Source: an uncultured Verrucomicrobiae bacterium
GTDB taxonomy: Bacteria; Verrucomicrobiota; Verrucomicrobiia; Chthoniobacterales; Chthoniobacteraceae
DNA length: 64,000 nucleotides
Direction: 5' to 3'
Assembly: GCA_963769025.1 (NCBI GenBank)
Contig: CAVYKI010000010.1
Coordinates: 1-64,000, forward strand
Shown here: piece by piece, positions 9,080-64,000 of the stretch
Position numbering within the stretch: the stretch's first letter is position 1
How the letters are laid out: each line of letters starts with the position of its first letter
The notes under the pieces: model-generated
What the model saw: only the letters and a program-made list of their open reading frames with translations
Database searches by the model: none
Told to the model about the DNA's origin: nothing
Position numbers and translations under genes: made by a program

Positions 9080-9730
9080 ATGAAAACCTCCCTCGCACTC
9101 CTCGTCGCCGCCATCACTTCCGCCGCTTTCGCCGCCGACCCCGGGCTGCCGCAAACGCGCATCGCACAGATTGAGAAACTCGAGTTCGCCGACGCTTTCA
9201 GCGGCACCGCGCCCGGCCCGCAGTGGAAGGCCGCCAAAGGCAGATGGGAAATCGTGGACGGCACACTCCGCGGCAGCGAAATCCCCGCGGACAAGCACGG
9301 CGCAGTCATCCGCCTGCCGTTCAGGCTGCAGAACATCGTCATCGCCTACGACGTGAAACTCGACGGCGCGAAAACGACCTCCCTCTCCATCAACGGGCCG
9401 AAGGATCACCTGGCCCGCGTCATCGTCGCACCGGCCCGCTTCGCCGTGCAGCGCGACGACCAGGATCATGACGGCCCCGACAAGGCCAGCGTCTTCCTCA
9501 CCAAGCCCGTCAAACTCGAACCGGGCACGTGGCACAGCGTCGTCCTCGAAATGGTCGGCGACAATATGGTCGGCACGCTCGACGGCAATCTCATCGGCGA
9601 CGGAAACGACCCGACTTTTGCCGCGAAGGAAAAGGTGAACCCCGGCTTCACCGTCGCCGGCGAGAGCGCCAGCTTCCGGAACGTGCGCATCTACACGGCC
9701 AAACCCGAGCCGAAGAAGGCCGGGAAGTAG
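9080..9730 (+). CDS. Secreted concanavalin-A-like / DUF1080-like hypothetical protein
   Basis: Signal peptide; GRWEIVDGTL, GTWHSVVLE, FRNVRI. Confidence 0.7.
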   Translation: MKTSLALLVAAITSAAFAADPGLPQTRIAQIEKLEFADAFSGTAPGPQWKAAKGRWEIVDGTLRGSEIPADKHGAVIRLPFRLQNIVIAYDVKLDGAKTTSLSINGPKDHLARVIVAPARFAVQRDDQDHDGPDKASVFLTKPVKLEPGTWHSVVLEMVGDNMVGTLDGNLIGDGNDPTFAAKEKVNPGFTVAGESASFRNVRIYTAKPEPKKAGK

Positions 9731-12982: not shown

Positions 12983-13195
12983 TCACGCAAACGCGAGCCT
13001 GCCTTTTGGCTCGGGGATCGGCCATGATGCTTCGCGCGCGGCAGTGAGATACGCGTCAATCATCTCCTCGGCATTGCGCAAAGCTTCAACCCGTGTCGCT
13101 CCATCAGTGACGATGCTCGGAAGCTCAGGCACTTCAGCAAGGAAGTGGCCATCCTGCTCGCTCCAATAAACGACGACCTCGAATTTGTTGTTCAT
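12983..13195 (-). CDS. hicB: HicB family antitoxin
   Basis: FEVVVYWSEQDGHFLAEVPELPS..TDGAT..EALRNAEE..PIPEPKG. Confidence 0.92.
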   Translation of the reverse strand: MNNKFEVVVYWSEQDGHFLAEVPELPSIVTDGATRVEALRNAEEMIDAYLTAAREASWPIPEPKGRLAFA

Positions 13196-13437
13196 AGTAG
13201 CTGGTTGTTTTGAAGCGCTTTGCGGGCCTGCCGGACTTGATAAGCTTTAGCTTTCCCGCCCTGCGGTTGCAAGTTGATCGCTTCGGCCATGCCGGGCTTC
13301 CGGAAAAAATGATGGCTTCCCGCGATGCGCATTTCAAAGCCGAGCCTCTGGAGCAACTGACACATCTCAGCGAAGTCCCACGCGGCATCCCGCTGCGGGT
13401 CACGCAACCGCTCCAGCAATTTGTCGTGTTTGCTCAC
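13192..13437 (-). CDS. hicA: HicA family toxin (mRNA interferase)
   Basis: LLQRLGFEMRIAGSHHFF...INLQP..GKAKAYQVRQ; overlaps the thrS stop and the hicB start. Confidence 0.9.
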   Translation of the reverse strand: MSKHDKLLERLRDPQRDAAWDFAEMCQLLQRLGFEMRIAGSHHFFRKPGMAEAINLQPQGGKAKAYQVRQARKALQNNQLL

Positions 13438-15965
13438 GCACGCCGCTCTCTGATCGCCGCAAGGATGTCCGCCACCGCCTCGTCGCGTTTCTTCGCGCCT
13501 TGCGGGCCTTTGCCGTGGATGCGAACGCTCACATTTCCCGCTTCCAGATCGCGTCCGCCGATGACGAGCATGTGGTGGACTTTCATCGTCTCGGCATTTG
13601 CGATCTTGGCTTTGATGGGTTCGTTCAGCGCGTCGAGCGTCGCGCGCACTCCCGCGGCGCGCAGCTCGGCGACGATGCCCTTCGCGTAGGCGAGCAGCGG
13701 CTCATCGTCCCCGAGCGTGAGCACGCGCACCTGCTCGGGCGCGAGCCAGAGCGGGAAATTGCCGGCGTAGTGCTCGATGAGGAAGCCGATGAACCGCTCG
13801 TGCGTGCCGAGCGGCGCGCGGTGGATGCAGAGCGGCGTCTTGTCCGTGTTGTCGCGGTCGCGGTAGGTGAGGCCGAATTTCGCGGGCACGGCGAAGTCCA
13901 CCTGGTTCGTGGCGATGGTGAATTCGCGGCCGATGGCGCTCCACACCTGCACGTCAATCTTCGGGCCGTAGAACGCGGCCTCGTTCGGCACCTCGATGTA
14001 GTTGATGCCGCTGCGCTGGAGGACGCCGCGGACCATGTCCTCGGTCTTCAGCCACAGCGCGGAGTTGTCCACGAACTTCTGGCCGAGCTTCGCCGGGTCG
14101 TGCGTGGAGAAGCGCATGAGGTATTTCTCGATGCCGAAGATTTTGAAATACTTGAGATACATCTCGTTCACGGCATTGAACTCGGACTCGAACTGTTCCT
14201 CGGTGAGGTAAATGTGCGCGTCGTTCATCTGCATGGAGCGCACGCGCATGAGGCCGAAAAGTTCGCCGCTCTGCTCGTAGCGGTAGCAGGTGCCGTATTC
14301 GGCGAGCCGCAGCGGAAGGTCGCGGTAACTGCGCGGCACCGCTCCGAAGAGCTTGTGATGGTGCGGGCAGTTCATGGCCTTGAGGTAGTAGCGGTCTCCA
14401 GTCGCCGTGGTAAAAGAAGGCGCGTCGTCCGCGGGTTTGCGTGCCTCGGGTAGGGTGGGCGTCCCGCCTGCCGTGCCGGGCGTCCCGCCTGGCACATCGG
14501 ACGTGGGACTGGCTCCCGCCTGCACATCCGGCGTCCAAACCCATGGATAGTTCTCCTCCGGCCCAACGAGATTCTCCCCGCGCGGATTGTTGCAGATGTA
14601 GAGAAACTTCTCCTCCAAATCCGAATCCCCGCGCACATAGCGATCGTATCGCTCCTGCTCCCACACCTCGCCCGTCGTCCCCTCCGCCTTGTTGATTTCC
14701 TTCGCGGTGAAACTCTTGATCGAGTGCATCAAATCGCCGAGCGGCCAGAACACGCTTTCGTCTTTCGCATTCTTCTCCTTTACCCACGGCTGAAGCAAAA
14801 AATGGACGTGATCGGGCATGACCACGGCGGCGAACAGTTCGTAGCGGACCCCGTGGAAATGGCGGAGAGCATTCAGGACGATGGTGCGCGCATCCGGCGA
14901 GAGGACGCGGTGGTCTCGCGTGGAGACGGTGACGAAATAGATCGCCCACGGTTTTTCGAAGTGCGGGAGGCGGCGGTGTTCCTTTTCGTAACGAACGCCT
15001 GTCGTGCGTTCGGATGTGCCAGGCGGGACGCCCGGCACGGCAGGCGGGACGCCCACCCTACCCGAGGCACTGCCCTTCGCCATTGGCGCGCCTGTGGTTC
15101 CCGCGCGCTCGTTTTCCAAAATCATCGGCGGGAACATGCTCTCCGCGTAATACGGCAGATGCCCGCTCGTGAGATACAGGTTCTCCCGCGCGAGGTGCGG
15201 CGTGCGCACGCGGTCGTAGCCGGCGGCGAACTCGGTTTCCTTCGCGAGCTTTTCGAGCTCCTCCAGCAGCACCGTGCCGCGCGGCAGCCACAGCGGCAGG
15301 CCGGGGCCCACGTCGTCGTCGAACGTGAAAAGCTCCAGCTCCTTGCCGAGCTTGCGATGGTCGCGCTTCTTCGCCTCCTCGAGCATCGTGAAATACTCGT
15401 CCATCTGCGTCTTGTTCTTGAACGCCGTGCCGTAGATGCGCTGGAGCTGCGGGTTTTTCTCGTCGCCCTTGTAGTAGGCGCTCGCGACGTGCGTGAGCCG
15501 GAACGCGCCGATGTTCCCCGTGCGCATGACGTGCGGCCCGGCGCACAGGTCGAGGAAGTCGCCGTTGCGGAAGAGCGAGATTTCCTCGCCCTCGGGGATG
15601 TCCGCGAGGTTGCCGATTTTGAATTTGCTCGGATTGCCCGGCCGCTCGCCGAGCCCGCCGAGGCGTCCGCTTTCCGCGAGCTTCACCGCCTCGTCGCGCG
15701 ACACAACCGTGCGCTCGAAGACGTTGTTCGCCTTGATCTCCTTTTTCATCTCCTCCTCGATGCGCGCGAAGTCCTCCGGCGAGATGCGGTGCTTCAAATC
15801 CACGTCGTAGTAAAAGCCATTCTCCACCGGCGGCCCCGCGGCAAACTGCGCCTCCGGCCAGATGCGGAGGATGGCCGTGGCGAGCACATGCGCCGCGCTG
15901 TGGCGCAGCCGCTCAAGGTCGGTCATCTGGTGGCGTTGCTCGATGGTCTTGCGTTCGTCGGACAT
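13434..15965 (-). CDS. thrS: Threonine--tRNA ligase with an in-frame insertion of about 235 aa
   Basis: RHSAAHVLA, DLCAGPHV, RDHRKLGKEL, MNCPHH, GLMRVR, EAAFYGPKID, HRAPLGTHERF, WLAPEQVR; no stop across 843 codons. Confidence 0.97.
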   Translation of the reverse strand: MSDERKTIEQRHQMTDLERLRHSAAHVLATAILRIWPEAQFAAGPPVENGFYYDVDLKHRISPEDFARIEEEMKKEIKANNVFERTVVSRDEAVKLAESGRLGGLGERPGNPSKFKIGNLADIPEGEEISLFRNGDFLDLCAGPHVMRTGNIGAFRLTHVASAYYKGDEKNPQLQRIYGTAFKNKTQMDEYFTMLEEAKKRDHRKLGKELELFTFDDDVGPGLPLWLPRGTVLLEELEKLAKETEFAAGYDRVRTPHLARENLYLTSGHLPYYAESMFPPMILENERAGTTGAPMAKGSASGRVGVPPAVPGVPPGTSERTTGVRYEKEHRRLPHFEKPWAIYFVTVSTRDHRVLSPDARTIVLNALRHFHGVRYELFAAVVMPDHVHFLLQPWVKEKNAKDESVFWPLGDLMHSIKSFTAKEINKAEGTTGEVWEQERYDRYVRGDSDLEEKFLYICNNPRGENLVGPEENYPWVWTPDVQAGASPTSDVPGGTPGTAGGTPTLPEARKPADDAPSFTTATGDRYYLKAMNCPHHHKLFGAVPRSYRDLPLRLAEYGTCYRYEQSGELFGLMRVRSMQMNDAHIYLTEEQFESEFNAVNEMYLKYFKIFGIEKYLMRFSTHDPAKLGQKFVDNSALWLKTEDMVRGVLQRSGINYIEVPNEAAFYGPKIDVQVWSAIGREFTIATNQVDFAVPAKFGLTYRDRDNTDKTPLCIHRAPLGTHERFIGFLIEHYAGNFPLWLAPEQVRVLTLGDDEPLLAYAKGIVAELRAAGVRATLDALNEPIKAKIANAETMKVHHMLVIGGRDLEAGNVSVRIHGKGPQGAKKRDEAVADILAAIRERRA
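14441..14498 (+). repeat. Inverted repeat arm (GTAG-REP plus a second hairpin)
   Basis: GTGCCTCGGGTAGGGTGGGCGTCCCGCCTGCCGTGCCGGGCGTCCCGCCTGGCACATC; exact reverse complement of 15013-15070. Confidence 0.95.
15013..15070 (-). repeat. Inverted repeat arm (partner of 14441-14498)
   Basis: 58/58 reverse-complement match. Confidence 0.95.
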
Positions 15966-16008
15966 AGGAAAAGGGCGGCGAAGCTAGGCGAGCCGCGGCG
16001 CAGGCGCA

Positions 16009-16117
16009 AGGGTAGGGCGCGCTCGCCGAGCGCGCCCCAACTTTTGCGGAGGGGCTTCGAGAAACGGCAGGCGCGGGGTAGGATGCGTGGGCGCTTTCGG
16101 CGAAAGCGCCCTACCCT
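16009..16117. repeat. REPIN (inverted pair of GTAG-REPs) upstream of thrS
   Basis: AGGGTAGGGCGCGCTCGCCGAGCGCGCCC (16009-16037) and inverted AGGGTAGGGCGCTTTCGCCGAAAGCGCCC (16089-16117). Confidence 0.8.
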
Positions 16118-16129
16118 GGCGCCCCGCGG

Positions 16130-17630
16130 TCACTGCGCGTCGAGCGCGCGGATGGGGAAGAGGTCCGACTTTGTGTGCTGCTCCTTCATCAGGGCGCTGA
16201 GCTTTGCGACCACGTCGGGATGATTGTCGGCGACGTCGTTGCTCTCGCCGATGTCCTTCGCGAGGTCGAAGAGCTGCGGGTCGCGCGGCTTCAGCTTCGC
16301 CTTCGGGCCGCCGTGGAGTTTCTCGAGGATGAGCTTCCAGTCGCCGACGCGGATGCACGCCTGCCCGCCGTAGCCGGGCGATTCGCGGTAGAGGAAAGGC
16401 CGCGGCTCCTGCGGCTTGCCGAGGAGCGTGGGCGCCATGCTGATGCCGTCGATGCCCGCAGGAGTGGCGGCCTTTTCGCCGATGAGCTCGAGGAGCGTCG
16501 GCATCCAGTCCTCGAACCCGCTCACGCGATCGCTCACGGTGCCAGCGGCGATGCGGCCCTTCCAGCGCACGATGGTCGGCACGCGAATGCCGCCCTCGAA
16601 CATCGAGCCCTTGCGCCCGTTCAGCGGCCCGGCGCTCTCGAAGAAATCCGTGTCGGTCCCGCCGAGCTTGCCGTAGAGCGGGCCGTTGTCGCTGGTGAAG
16701 ACGAAGATGGTGCGCTCATCGAGGCCGAGTTCCTTCACGAGATCGGCCAGACCGGCCAATCTCGCGATCCATGCGCGTGACCATCGCGGCGTACGCAGCG
16801 CGCGGGGCACGATGCGGCAGGTAGCCATTGCCGCCGGGATAGGGCTCCTCGGGAAATTTTCCCGCATACTCCGTGAGCGAATCCTCCGGCACCTGCAGCG
16901 CGAGGTGCGGCACGGTCGTGGGGTAGTAGAGGAAAAACGGGCGGTCCTTGTTGTCCTGGACGAACTCCAGCGCCTCGGCGCTGATCAGGTCGGGCGCGTA
17001 GTCCTTGCCGGAAAACTTGCGCGTAGGTCTCCGAGGAATTCGAGATCGGCGCCCTCGGCGAGTTTCTGGTGCGCGGAGAATGCCGGGTTGTCCAGGGCGC
17101 GCTTCTTGTCGTTGTCCCAGAGGTGCGTCGGGTAGTAATTGTGCGCGACGCCCTGGCAGTTGTAGCCGAAGAAACGGTCGAAGCCCTGCTTCAGCGGATC
17201 GCCCGTCGAGCCCACCGGACCGAGGCCCCATTTTCCAAAACCGCCGCTCGTGTAGCCGAGCTTTTGCAGCGTGAGCGGGAAGGTCAGTTCGCCCGCGGGC
17301 ACGGGCGTCTGTCCTTCCTCCCACTTCGGGTCGAGCGCCTTTGCGTTCCCGTTGTCGCGGATGAATGCGTGGCCGGGGTGCTTGCCGGTCATGCAGCACG
17401 CAGCGCGACGGCGCGCAGACGTTGTTGCCCGAGTAGTGCTGCGTGAGCTTCATGCCCTCGGCGGCGATGCGATCGATGTTCGGCGTGCGGATCTTTTTCT
17501 GCCCGAATGCACCGACATCGCCGTAGCCCAGATCGTCGGCGAGGATGAAGATGATGTTCGGGCGCTGCTCCGCGGCGTGCGCGACAGCGGCGAGGAGGAG
17601 CGATGCGAGGAGGAAACGCGGTGCTTTCAT
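16130..17630 (-). CDS. Arylsulfatase (formylglycine-dependent), split by at least 3 frameshifts
   Basis: [54 protein letters not shown] spread across three ORFs; shifts near 17393, 17030 and 16760. Confidence 0.85.
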
Positions 17631-17692
17631 GGGAGGAGGCGATATGGAGTGGGCGCGCGGGGAGTGCAAGCGGAGGCTGCGACCGCCAAGCG

Positions 17693-17757
17693 GCCGCCGG
17701 GAGGAGGCGGGGCCTTCGAATTGGAATCTCAACCCGCCTCCTTCCGCCGGCGGCTAC
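17693..17757. repeat. REP pair (GTAGCCGCCGGCGGAAGGAGGCGGG family)
   Basis: Full REP on the - strand at 17733-17757 and a degenerate inverted arm at 17693-17711; near-identical copy at 25070-25094. Confidence 0.7.
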
Positions 17758-24308: not shown

Positions 24309-25398
24309 TCAGCGCACGCCCATCTCGCGCGCGGCGGCCTTCACGCCTTCGAGCAATGCGCGCCAGTCGTCGCGCGTCGTCCCCCACCCCGCGCTGAAGC
24401 GCAGTGCGCGCCCGGCATCCTCCGGCGAAACGCCCATCGCCGTCAGCACGTGCGACGGCTTCTCCTTCCCGCTCGCGCATGCCGATCCGGTCGAGACCGC
24501 AAAGCCCAGCTTGTCCATCACCACCACCCAGCGGCGGCGGCAATCGGGCGTCTCGGGCAGGATCACCGAGACCGTGTTCCAAAGCCGCTCCACGCCTGCG
24601 CCGAGCACGCGCACACCCGGCAGCGCCGCGGTGAGTCCGCTCTCAAATTCCTCGCGCCATCCGAGCCGTTCATCGAGCGCACCGCCGCGGATCGCCGCCT
24701 CGCGCTCCTCCAGCACCGCGAGCATGGCGAGGACGCCGGCAACATTTTCCGTCCCCGCGCGACGCCCCTCCTCCTGCGGCCCGCCACGCAGCAGCGGCGG
24801 AAAATCCGCGGGGCATTTCAAAAACCCGACGCCCTGCGGCCCGCCGAACTTGTGCGCGCACCCGCTCACAAAATCACACGCACCGAGCCCTGCCGCCGGC
24901 AGACGCCCGATCCACTGCGCCGCATCGCAAAACAGCGGGACGCCATTTTCCCCGCAGACCGAAAGCGCCTCCCGCCACGGCTGCAGCACGCCCGTCTCGT
25001 TGTTCGCCGCCATCAGCGCGACGAGCTGCGGACTTCGCACCGTCGAACCGCGGAAGCTCCACCACTCCCGTAGCCGCCGACGGAAGGAGGCGGGCTGATT
25101 TTCCCCTCAGGGGTTCCAGCACGCACGGATGCTCGATCGCCGAAGCCAACACGTCATCGAACTGCGCGATCACCGCATTCGCCGATTCCGTCGCGCCGCT
25201 CGTAAATACGATCTGATCCGCGCCACACCCCAAAATCGTCGCGAGCCGCTCCCGCGCATTTTGCAGCGCCGCCTCCGCCCGCTGTCCCGTCCGGTGCGGC
25301 GACGACGGATTTCCCGGGAAGCGCTCCACCGCCTCCAGCCACGCGCGCTTCGCCGTCCCGGAGAGCGGATGCGTGGCGTTGTGGTCAAAGTAGAGCAT
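24309..25398 (-). CDS. Cysteine desulfurase (IscS/NifS class), one frameshift near 25032
   Basis: YFDHNATHP, FTSGATESAN, AIEHPCV, ANNETG, CDAAQ, AHKFGGPQG, RRAGTEN, STGSACAS. Confidence 0.88.
25070..25094 (+). repeat. REP copy lying inside the desulfurase coding frame
   Basis: GTAGCCGCCGACGGAAGGAGGCGGG; 24/25 identical to the reverse complement of 17733-17757; read as RLLPSAAT. Confidence 0.65.
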
Positions 25399-58694: not shown

Positions 58695-58964
58695 GATGCG
58701 GACAGGCGAGTCCATCTGCGTCTCGAAGTCATAAACGTGGAATTCGTGAAATTCGTGGAAGTGGCCGAAGGCGATGAAGAGGCGGTCGAGGAAGCGCTGC
58801 GCCTGATCGTTGTCGTCTCATTCGGAGACGACCTGCGAAATGCCTCCGGGTTTTACGAACGCGCTCACGCGCGGGGCAGTCTCGTCGGCGGTGATGTGTG
58901 CCTTTGCCCATGCGGTGAAGGTGGCAAGTTTTTCGGGAGAGGAGCGCAGTTCAGCCGTGGCCAC
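58695..58964 (-). pseudogene. Decayed 5' fragment of an MmeI-like type IIG restriction-methylase (copy A)
   Basis: VATAELRSSPEKLATFTAWAKAHITADE...AQRFLDRLFIAFGH...EFHVYDFETQMDSPV, with frame breaks and an internal deletion. Confidence 0.65.
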
Positions 58965-59089
58965 AGGGCGGAGAGTGCCCGGGAGTCGGGAGCGTTTCAC
59001 GCCGTGGGGCGCGGCGTTCTCTTCGCGACAGCCCGTTTTGCGGACGATTTTCCCGGCCACAAGGCACGCTGGCCCGAATCCGTCTTAGA

Positions 59090-62394: not shown

Positions 62395-62804
62395 GGCTTG
62401 GATTTCGTTGGTGCCTTCTTCCAGTCGGTGTGGGCGATGACGTAGGGCGGGCGGTGCGGGACGTGGTGTGTCCGGCAGTCGAATGCCTGATCGTAGTGGC
62501 GCTCCAGCTTTGCGCCGCGGGATTTCATCTCGATGAGCGCGCGCTCGGGCCACAGGAGGTCGGCGAATTTCTTGCCTCCCTTCGCCCGCGCGCGGTCGCC
62601 ATGGAGCGGTTCGAGCTGCGCGTAGCCGGGCTTTTTCGCGATGCGGAACTCGAAGGTCGCTCCAGCCTCGATGGCTCCGCCGTGACCGAGCGCGCGGAAG
62701 AGATGATCGAGAAACGTCTGCGCCTCGCTTTTCTCATCGCCATGAAGCGAGCGCGCAAAGGCGGCGAAATTTTCGGGGGAGGAACGAAGTTCAGCCGTGG
62801 CCAC
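62391..62804 (-). pseudogene. Truncated MmeI-like type IIG restriction-methylase N-terminal nuclease domain (copy B)
   Basis: GDEKSEAQTFLDHLFRALGH...FEFR...KFADLLWPERALIEMKSRG..L..HYDQAFD...RPPYV, then abrupt end; no methyltransferase domain follows. Confidence 0.78.
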
Positions 62805-62991
62805 GGGACGGAACGTGTCCGGGATGCGGGATGGTTGCAAGCCGCGGGTCCGTGCCTTGCAGGCGGACATGGCTCGGGCGCTCAGTCTGCAAGCGAGGCG
62901 AAGAGGTGCTGCTCTCGGCATCCACGTCGGCGGGACTGGCGACGGTCCCGGCGATCCCGGCGCGGGGAGTTGTCAGCCAGTCCGCCCGATT

Positions 62992-63884: not shown

Positions 63885-63973
63885 CGCTCGCCGGACTGGA
63901 GGATGACCACGCGCCGATGCCGGTGCAGATCGCCGGATTTGTCGGGGGAGGAACGAATGTCAGCCGGTGCCAC
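63881..63973 (-). pseudogene. Very short 5' remnant of the same MmeI-like gene (copy C)
   Basis: VAPADIRSSPDK, DNA similar to copies A and B; stop overlaps the DMT start (ATGA). Confidence 0.5.
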
Positions 63974-64000
63974 GGGGCGAACGATGCGCAGTCTGCCCGG

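Follow-up and report, generated by a model that had tools for sequence, protein, structure and literature searches.

A RAYT cassette with translated hairpin arms nested in frame within the threonyl-tRNA synthetase gene of an uncultured Verrucomicrobiae bacterium

The closest described systems to the one reported here are REPtrons, in which a REP-associated tyrosine transposase (RAYT) is flanked by repetitive extragenic palindromic (REP) sequences. Published passages on the E. coli enzyme TnpA-REP describe it as binding and cleaving single-stranded REPs, requiring GTAG and transferring strands (PMC3333891, PMC3479197), and name H59, H61, Y115 and N119 as its active-site residues (PMC3479197). 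Dispersed cognate REPs are given there as usual for RAYTs and not universal (PMC3733652, in part), and REPtron variants termed TIRtron/TIRYT are described, in the same portions of the literature, with longer composite inverted repeats as flanks (PMC3733652, PMC3333891, PMC3479197). In-frame intragenic GTAG REPs are reported in one passage to be most numerous in the verrucomicrobium Opitutus terrae, with repair and replication genes and tRNA synthetases among their hosts (PMC3733652). Here we describe a stretch of 64,000 nucleotides (nt), called the window throughout, from an uncultured Verrucomicrobiae bacterium (GenBank assembly GCA_963769025.1, contig CAVYKI010000010.1, positions 1 to 64,000), in which thrS, the gene for threonyl-tRNA synthetase (ThrRS), carries an entire RAYT cassette, hairpin arms included, inside its own reading frame.

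The gene is a minus-strand open reading frame (ORF) at 13434..15965, with its stop codon at 13434-13436 and a product of 843 amino acids (aa) in the ORF list and translation; its host parts were assigned with Pfam, NCBIfam and alignment to the solved S. aureus ThrRS structure, 1NYQ. The N-terminal part (aa 1-281; 15123..15965, minus strand) ends in MFPPM (aa 277-281), comprises tRNA_SAD, an editing-domain remnant, and the start of the catalytic domain, and aligns with 1NYQ residues 70-325. The C-terminal part (aa 523-843; 13437..14399, minus strand) begins with GDRYYLKAMNCPHH, holds the zinc-site Cys533, the class II core and the anticodon-binding domain, and aligns with 1NYQ 330-641. Pfam places tRNA_SAD at aa 133-178, tRNA-synt_2b at 522-733 and HGTP_anticodon at 745-834, and the NCBIfam thrS model TIGR00418 scores 568 bits, split over two stretches of the ORF. 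Because the 1NYQ alignment runs through chain residue 325 and restarts at 330, the 241 residues that intervene (aa 282-522; 14400..15122, minus strand) replace a turn of ~4 residues before the zinc-binding Cys. An earlier note on this DNA, made from the letters alone, had proposed just such an ORF, with a 241-residue insert at what is normally a short loop of a few residues and with tRNA-synt_2b as the domain to look for, and translation, Pfam and TIGR00418 bear it out. The zinc ligands C533, H584 and H715 and the class II core are invariant among 44 fusions, from which the ThrRS host part appears to be functional.

Delimited by alignment to alleles with inserts of 18-24 aa, the insert consists in turn of a linker, a 5' arm, the RAYT core, a 3' arm and a second linker. 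The core, a Y1/HUH transposase domain (aa 324-479; 14529..14996, minus strand), is assigned from NCBIfam, a profile match to structure 4ER8, its structural model with Foldseek and its substitution pattern. The NCBIfam family REP_Tyr_transpos (NF047646) matches aa 335-475 with an E value of 1.2e-20 over model positions 4-145 of 146. The HUH motif, H386-V-H388 (14802..14810, minus strand; MPDHVH, aa 383-388), aligns with H59/H61 of E. coli TnpA-REP, while the candidate catalytic Y456 in FLYICNNP (14598..14600, minus strand) and N460, a probable metal ligand, align with Y115 and N119 of 4ER8. All four residues are invariant in the 44 fusions, among which core identity goes down to 44.5%. A profile built from 41 relatives has TnpA-REP, 4ER8, as its top match in the Protein Data Bank (PDB) at E 8e-12, with IS200/IS605 TnpAs at 6e-5 or worse; the profile search was needed for this match because plain phmmer of the core against the PDB found nothing relevant. 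The model of the core is confident (pLDDT 89.5, pTM 0.82), and Foldseek against the PDB ranks 4er8_A first (E 3.8e-8, TM 0.60/0.61), ahead of the IS200, IS608 and ISDra2 transposases at ranks 2-30. The AlphaFold model of the whole fusion, which is poor (pLDDT 60.4, pTM 0.36) and was used solely for the contrast in confidence between domain and linkers, not for geometry, shows a confident RAYT domain (~340-480) between very low-confidence linkers at 282-337 and 481-523 (pLDDT <50).

By its sequence and predicted fold, the insert is thus a RAYT-type Y1/HUH domain, with a match well beyond chance. Y1_Tnp is absent from the Pfam listing for the whole 843-aa protein, and many homologous fusions hold a precomputed PF01797 label. 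The motifs from which an intact-looking RAYT within the ThrRS catalytic domain had first been read, RRLPHF, YFVT, MPDHVH, KSFTAKEIN, W.QE.YDR.VR and YICNNP, are present in that order and at the expected positions; NF047646, the 4ER8 profile and fold matches and the invariant residues support the reading, as does the structure prediction that the earlier note had suggested, the core folding confidently with 4ER8 as its nearest neighbour. In translation the insert shows neither a stop, as had been claimed, nor an obvious start of its own, and since the cassette has neither, the RAYT can be produced only as an internal ThrRS domain. The GC content at third codon positions (GC3) is 0.68 in the insert against 0.83 in the host gene.

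A feature that the earlier note had missed is a 61-nt inverted repeat, 98% complementary, that encloses the RAYT core within the ORF. The 5' arm (15010..15070, minus strand), consisting of a GGGTAGGG head and two 21-nt hairpin units, reads ...SGRVGVPPAVPGVPPGT..., and the 3' arm (14441..14501, minus strand), its reverse complement, reads ...DVPGGTPGTAGGTPTLPE.... Both are in frame, so that one yields ...GRVGVPPA... and the other, from the opposite DNA strand, ...AGGTPTLP.... In a single-strand fold the arms pair as a predicted ~64-bp stem around the core, with a minimum free energy of -358 kcal/mol versus -275 for shuffled sequences (z = -13). The GGGTAGGG head is found 4 times in the window against 0.3 expected by chance, two of these being the arms and two an intergenic pair upstream. 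Inverted arms of 38-63 nt with a CGGGTAG head are present in 7/7 RAYT-bearing thrS genes, those of the window and six further loci, and the first stem of one locus, L006, has a compensatory change, GGGTG...CACCC replacing GGGCG...CGCCC. In 5/8 left arms the CGGGTAG head is immediately preceded by CT, which is suggestive at most. Because inverted GTAG-headed arms flank the RAYT inside the ORF, the insert is a complete REPtron-like cassette that is translatable throughout. The contrast drawn earlier with RAYTs that are normally free-standing and REP-flanked does not hold for the flanks, which are present here too, as translated arms.

The cassette resembles REPtrons and TnpA-REP in several respects: HUH, catalytic Tyr and Asn ligand stand in equivalent positions of the Y1/HUH domain, inverted GTAG-headed hairpins lie on each side, RAYT lineages co-vary with their repeats, and 4ER8 is the best match. 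It differs in that the RAYT is not free-standing; arms and RAYT form one frame, nested in another gene and without start or stop. Whereas typical RAYTs have dispersed cognate REPs, none is abundant near thrS in the 1.36 Mb seen, and the picture of single-copy, vertical RAYTs contrasts with the patchy, host-discordant distribution of the nested cassettes. Intragenic REPs and the palindromic elements of Rickettsia are likewise translated in conserved proteins, presumably in tolerant loops, but they are non-autonomous, whereas the window insert has a transposase between its repeats as a folded domain of ~156 aa. The passages on intragenic REPs and REPtrons in PMC3733652 make no mention of a whole in-frame nested RAYT, and none of the words fusion, fused, in-frame and inside occurs in PMC5581495 by a word search. 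A phylogenomic survey of the superfamily dropped over-long proteins, taken as gene fusions or annotation errors, according to the relevant part of its text (PMC6006769), an exclusion that points to a blind spot. Supplementary files aside, our literature search turned up no account of a RAYT embedded in frame in another gene; only automatic JGI names came up, the fusions being called 'threonyl-tRNA synthetase/REP element-mobilizing transposase RayT'. As far as these sources go, what is new is the entire RAYT cassette nested in frame; in-frame intragenic REPs, REPtrons and RAYTs flanked by terminal inverted repeats were already known (PMC3733652).

Selection acts differently on the parts of the cassette. 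Nei-Gojobori ratios of nonsynonymous to synonymous substitution (dN/dS) were calculated for seven pairs drawn from six thrS genes that bear a RAYT and are full-length, that of the window and those of L001 and L003-L006. They are 0.07-0.24 in the ThrRS host part; in the RAYT core, where dS is saturated in two pairs, the other five give 0.10-0.12. The core is under strong purifying selection, with a dN/dS as low as that of ThrRS itself, and it follows from these values that it is a working protein domain. The arms have a dS of 0.03-0.34 in 6/7 pairs and of 0.81 between the window and L006, compared with 0.39-1.27 in host and core, and a dN/dS of 0.27-2.4; from this low synonymous divergence it follows that the arms are kept as nucleic acid, not as peptide. 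The remaining linkers evolve fast (dN/dS 0.10-0.49, one pair 2.3). The RAYT fold and catalytic residues are thus held by strong purifying selection and the arms as nucleic-acid hairpins, with the RAYT joined to ThrRS through Pro/Gly/Ala-rich linkers that the arms encode. The idea that a passenger sits here in an essential gene, avoiding selection, therefore survives in part: the passenger fits best, and the avoidance is wrong, as the dN/dS analysis that the earlier note had called for finds the core at ~0.10-0.12 and the arms constrained at synonymous sites.

The interrupted gene, first noticed as a single case, is no one-off, as many Verrucomicrobiota have a cassette at this site and related cassettes lie in other proteins. 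Among the 120 best ThrRS hits, ranked by score to the RAYT-bearing query, the insertion point is identical in all, and the insert measures >=200 aa in 73, 45-115 aa in 42 and 18-24 aa in 5. The Tyr motif is found in 73/73 long inserts and a strict HUH regular expression in 68/73, one of the misses, P0008, still having both His. A species-representative sample consists of 79 loci of 20 kb from contigs of one genome per species, the best-scoring 80 of 568; 75 have both junctions, and thrS bears a RAYT in 6/75 (L001-L006). The reading frame is open across arms and RAYT in all 73 bearers and in the six further loci. The thrS relatives are labelled Chthoniobacterales and other Verrucomicrobiota, and alignment among them uncovers the alleles without RAYT that had been sought, with inserts of only 18-24 aa or unrelated ones of 45-115 aa. 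A history in which the RAYT is ancestral and was later lost, taken from a host tree of the 120 hits, was dropped, as that list is biased by its query and 6/75 representative loci carry a RAYT.

Other occupants of the site include what may be pieces of cassettes. A lone type-A arm (an exact 21-mer) stands there without a RAYT in L011 and P0116, and a degenerate doublet of type-B2 arms, again without a RAYT, in L068; these are exactly of the kind found in 'REP-decorated' proteins. The 47 mid-sized and short inserts of the 120 form 32 mutually unrelated families, even between near-identical hosts, and GC3 of the helical inserts is below that of the host gene in 42/42 loci (0.56 vs 0.80). These helical inserts, in the sister alleles P0044-P0120 and L007-L079, are 45-125 aa long and rich in Glu, Leu, Ala and Arg. 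Sister inserts of 45-115 aa were considered as decayed RAYTs and rejected, the core HMM being blank on them with a best E of 0.6 in 47 inserts. In L058, L059 and L075, this ThrRS loop contains two to three copies of another small palindrome, of CAGGCTTCCAGCCTG type, read in frame, and CAGGCTTCCAGCCTG-like peptides also border RAYTs in some alanyl-tRNA synthetase (AlaRS) and RecG fusions. An identical loop peptide, EFKEAEADEVATR, occurs in L033, L039, L041, L042 and L056, metagenome-assembled genomes (MAGs) labelled Akkermansia muciniphila, Cyanophyceae, Verrucomicrobiales and Limisphaerales; because one peptide crosses such differing labels, mislabelled or contaminated bins are suggested.

Signs that the cassettes have moved independently of their hosts come from comparing the two. 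Three RAYT lineages can be distinguished, each with its own co-varying pair of arm peptides: GRVGVPPA/AGGTPTLP in lineage A, GSARVSRA/TRDACAPQ in B1, and GAHAPSRA with AREGACAPQ or AREARALP in B2. Host and core identity are nearly uncorrelated (Spearman 0.15, 2556 pairs); for P0022, for instance, identity to the window is 86% over the host part but 44.5% over the core. A tree of ThrRS alone requires no fewer than 17 changes of cassette type, and type-A hosts as one clade are rejected by the host alignment (lnL difference 470.5, AU p = 1.3e-68); a given cassette lineage thus fills the thrS site in hosts that are not nearest kin. The window is the sole RAYT bearer in its 18-row ThrRS clade, and its host part is 95% identical to that of P0048, whose insert is an unrelated 86 aa. 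The cognate arm 21-mer (<=4 mismatches) occurs 17 times in thrS and once, weakly, outside it across 1.36 Mb of window and loci, which includes ~160 kb of non-thrS sequence of seven type-A bearers; in the regions seen, with 17 matches against 1, the arms do not belong to any dense family of dispersed REPs.

Related cassettes, of the same lineages, reside in other genes. Searched exhaustively with phmmer, the core retrieves 5827 representatives at E<=1e-3, 73 of which are at E<=1e-30, and 41 of the best 150 matches exceed 400 aa. Pfam on these long matches places RAYTs within AlaRS (at several sites), RecG, ValRS, other class I synthetases, PriA and PurH, and further in a PFL-like glycyl-radical enzyme, DNA methylases, Ham1, BirA, DnaK and others; the cores embedded in non-ThrRS hosts are 36-67% identical to that of the window. 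A search for longer proteins yields 1084 at E<=1e-10, the best 120 being ThrRS, AlaRS, RecG, MetH, methylases and an aminotransferase, and among those best 120 every name that bears a taxon is Verrucomicrobiota or a subgroup. The earlier note's suggestion that Y1-type domains be sought in other housekeeping ORFs was therefore well placed, with AlaRS, RecG, MetH, PurH and others found. Arm peptides of types A and B1 flank the RAYT in AlaRS and those of type B1 in RecG, and two RAYT domains occupy different sites of one protein in 8 AlaRS (P0271, P0273-P0275, P0277-P0280) and 2 MetH (P0272, P0281). A tree was built from 294 RAYT domains; over its 217 nested rows, host labels must change 28 times or more, and the hosts come from no fewer than 14 families of unrelated function. 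The window RAYT falls in a supported clade of 57 rows, 35 of them ThrRS, 16 AlaRS and 2 DNA methylase; three more are short proteins that may be free-standing, and one belongs to another group. To judge from the sequences, then, cassette lineages have switched host lineages and host genes many times. Free-standing relatives also exist (e.g. P0170, P0175), in some of which the reading frame also continues through the RAYT's own arms (e.g. P0124, P0145). Immediately upstream of thrS in L016 (9176-9892, minus strand) and L034 (~9190-9720), and divergent from it, lies a distant free-standing RAYT-like gene; the one in L016 encodes 238 aa, 38-40% identical to the window core, and thrS of both loci is without a nested RAYT.

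Taken together, these observations suggest that the insert is probably a mobile, selfish REPtron-like cassette that takes refuge in permissive loops of essential genes and is expressed only as a fusion with its host. By analogy with E. coli TnpA-REP and IS200/IS605, the arms would fold, or pair with each other, on single-stranded DNA and so draw the cassette ends close, and the fused RAYT would cut beside the GTAG-headed hairpins and rejoin strands, moving the cassette. Such 'peel and paste' transposition would let the cassette leave and enter genes without target duplication, and only insertions in frame, free of stops and in tolerant loops would survive in essential genes. A cassette so lodged would gain free expression and, because such changes would kill the host gene, would be protected from imprecise deletion and from frameshift or nonsense mutation, a logic like that of inteins minus the splicing. 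A lost cassette could leave behind a lone arm or an arm doublet, and perhaps the hypervariable inserts too are such leftovers. A bolder version, to which we give somewhat less than even credence, casts the cassettes as 'spliceless inteins': translatable REP-RAYT-REP units of Verrucomicrobiota that would actively home into loops of essential genes (thrS, alaS, recG, metH, purH and others) through cycles of invasion, decay and re-invasion, the RAYT acting while fused and the thrS site being hit again and again under some recognition rule.

Several points weigh against this explanation of a mobile, selfish cassette. It is drawn wholly from sequence, and the family scores are not all secure: NF047646 reaches 73.9 bits, 6 below its curated cut-off of 80, and the Y1_Tnp check put forward earlier finds a match on the insert alone, but at 19.5 bits, under the cut-off of 23. 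The poor whole-protein model gives no structural support to a ThrRS fold that would tolerate the insert. At the junctions examined neither a target-site duplication nor a shared target motif beyond the arms is evident, which leaves the repeated hits on the same thrS site without explanation. The 120-hit list over-represents bearers, and because the query by which it was ranked bears a RAYT, the ancestral state cannot be read from it. The discordance between host and insert could stem from homologous recombination of thrS alleles or from chimeric metagenome assemblies. A second, normal thrS had been named as an objection; the interrupted ORF is the only ThrRS match within the window, and an uninterrupted thrS elsewhere in the genome is possible.

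The main rival explanation takes up the recombination just mentioned. Here the cassette would be immobile. It would pass between lineages only when DNA is taken up and recombines through the conserved, homologous thrS flanks, and the RAYT would serve, in a classical role, to maintain dispersed REPs or paired REPs (REPINs) elsewhere in the genome. The flanks of the bearers, 70-96% identical in ThrRS, would offer ample homology for allele replacement, part of the literature describes RAYTs as single-copy, domesticated and vertically inherited (PMC5581495), and a second pair of GGGTAGGG-headed hairpins does lie in the intergenic region upstream of thrS. A RAYT that maintains dispersed repeats fits poorly with a cognate 21-mer seen 17 times in thrS and once, weakly, outside it in 1.36 Mb, and because the same cassette lineages occupy unrelated host genes, recombination of thrS flanks cannot explain their spread. 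We therefore regard this alternative as unlikely, though it is the strongest of those considered.

Somewhat less likely again is a RAYT that is not selfish but domesticated to serve the host enzyme or cell, for example as a nucleic-acid-binding or regulatory module of ThrRS. Purifying selection on the core equal to that on ThrRS and an insert conserved over many lineages are what such a module would be expected to show. Against this, the closest relatives have unrelated inserts or almost none, with a RAYT in 6/75 loci, three cassette lineages interchange at the thrS site, the same domain recurs in hosts of 14 or more families with unrelated functions, and the arms have been preserved as DNA hairpins, for which a protein module would have no use. 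The nuclease tethered to a synthetase that had been offered as an alternative at the outset is thus opposed by the spread over many host genes, and a domestication specific to synthetases is disfavored because the cassettes occur in many proteins with a patchy, discordant distribution.

It is also conceivable, at a low probability, that the insert is removed before the enzyme matures, by RNA cleavage and ligation at the 64-bp stem, by proteolysis of the linkers or by some unrecognized splicing chemistry. The very stable stem of the arms would bring the host halves together, the linkers are predicted to be disordered, and the host spectrum of nested cassettes resembles that of intein hosts. However, neither the whole protein (Pfam, E up to 0.01) nor the insert (E up to 10) matches a Hint or intein family, and no conserved splice nucleophiles are found among 20 aligned alleles, in which residues at both junctions vary freely, in agreement with the initial view of a non-intein passenger. 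An Rfam scan of 13000-16500 (E up to 1) gives no intron or ribozyme family, its only result being a sub-threshold match of CRISPR-DR29 to the palindromic arm (22.4 bits vs 39). Excision at the RNA level would moreover need no open frame, yet the frame is open in 73 bearers and six loci.

The remaining alternatives fare worse. An old, frozen insertion decaying into a meaningless linker could be read from the unrelated helical inserts and arm remnants in sister alleles and from an insert GC3 of 0.68 under the host's 0.83, but it is already contradicted by the selection data, with a core dN/dS of ~0.1, catalytic residues invariant in 44 fusions down to 44.5% core identity and arms still 98% complementary, and it retains very little probability. 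An assembly chimera or gene-calling artefact, at which the neighboring sulfatase gene, split over three frames, might hint through indel errors or pseudogene formation, is scarcely credible given that dozens of independent assemblies, of varied origin and with contigs as long as 2.0 and 4.0 Mb among them, all show the same junction architecture and stay in frame through both junctions.

Two further known systems invite comparison. Inteins with homing endonucleases place a selfish nuclease gene in frame at conserved sites of essential proteins. The nested cassettes share with them expression driven by the host, protection from imprecise deletion, patchy empty, degenerate and occupied alleles and several elements per protein. 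Unlike inteins, the window insert is without a Hint domain or junction nucleophiles and apparently stays in the mature protein, and where the intein enzyme is a double-strand homing endonuclease, that of the window would be a single-strand HUH transposase with DNA hairpin ends. The IS200/IS605 elements (IS608, ISDra2), whose intron-borne relatives are the IStrons, have a related Y1 fold, target duplication is likewise not evident, and a hairpin-dependent 'peel and paste' mode is assumed by analogy. The window core is nonetheless nearer to TnpA-REP (8e-12 vs 6e-5), its ends are near-identical inverted repeats in place of the distinct left and right subterminal hairpins of IS200/IS605, and the cassette is without TnpB or a ribozyme and is nested in frame, neither interrupting nor avoiding genes. 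The analogy in mechanism draws on the biochemistry of E. coli TnpA-REP and of IS200/IS605 enzymes (PMC3333891, PMC3479197, PMC6006769).

The surroundings of thrS contain further repeats and genes. Just upstream is the intergenic inverted pair of GGGTAGGG-headed, GC-rich hairpins (16003-16037 and 16089-16123), REPIN-like with a 51-nt spacer, whose stem family is unlike that of the cassette arms. Downstream lies a HicA-like toxin ORF (13192-13437, minus strand; Pfam 29.8 bits), whose GTG start codon and the stop of thrS overlap; it is followed by a small UPF0150/HicB-like ORF (12983-13195, minus strand), a weak match of 19.7 bits; in one homologue of 892 aa, P0039, the ThrRS-RAYT fusion reads through into HicA. 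The upstream sulfatase (16130-17732, minus strand) extends over three overlapping frames, with ORFs at 16716-17732, 16985-17392 and 16130-16867, and is either a frameshifted pseudogene or the product of assembly indel errors. A pair of 35-nt inverted repeats, 89% complementary and 7.3 kb apart (17723-17757 and 25070-25104), has a GTAGCCGCC-type head and could represent a further REP family. A direct repeat family of 49-91 nt has three copies with 79-82% identity (58918-59008, 62758-62848 and 63931-63979) close to where the window ends.

RAYTs are presented as the model of a domesticated, single-copy, free-standing transposase, and here a large clade of them is found nested in frame in essential genes, with hairpins for the recognition of DNA that double as protein linkers. 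If the proposed explanation is true, core enzymes permanently bear an extra folded DNA-cutting domain, and in the bolder version the debris of the cycle, lone hairpins, doublets and perhaps helical inserts, would reshape their surface loops. It becomes testable whether an HUH transposase works as an internal domain, HUH domains serving as covalent DNA-protein tags, and how large a share mobile elements have had in the evolution of loops and insertion domains in tRNA synthetases and repair helicases. The nested cassettes would then be a second, independent answer to the problem of inteins, a selfish nuclease hidden in an indispensable gene with no protein splicing.

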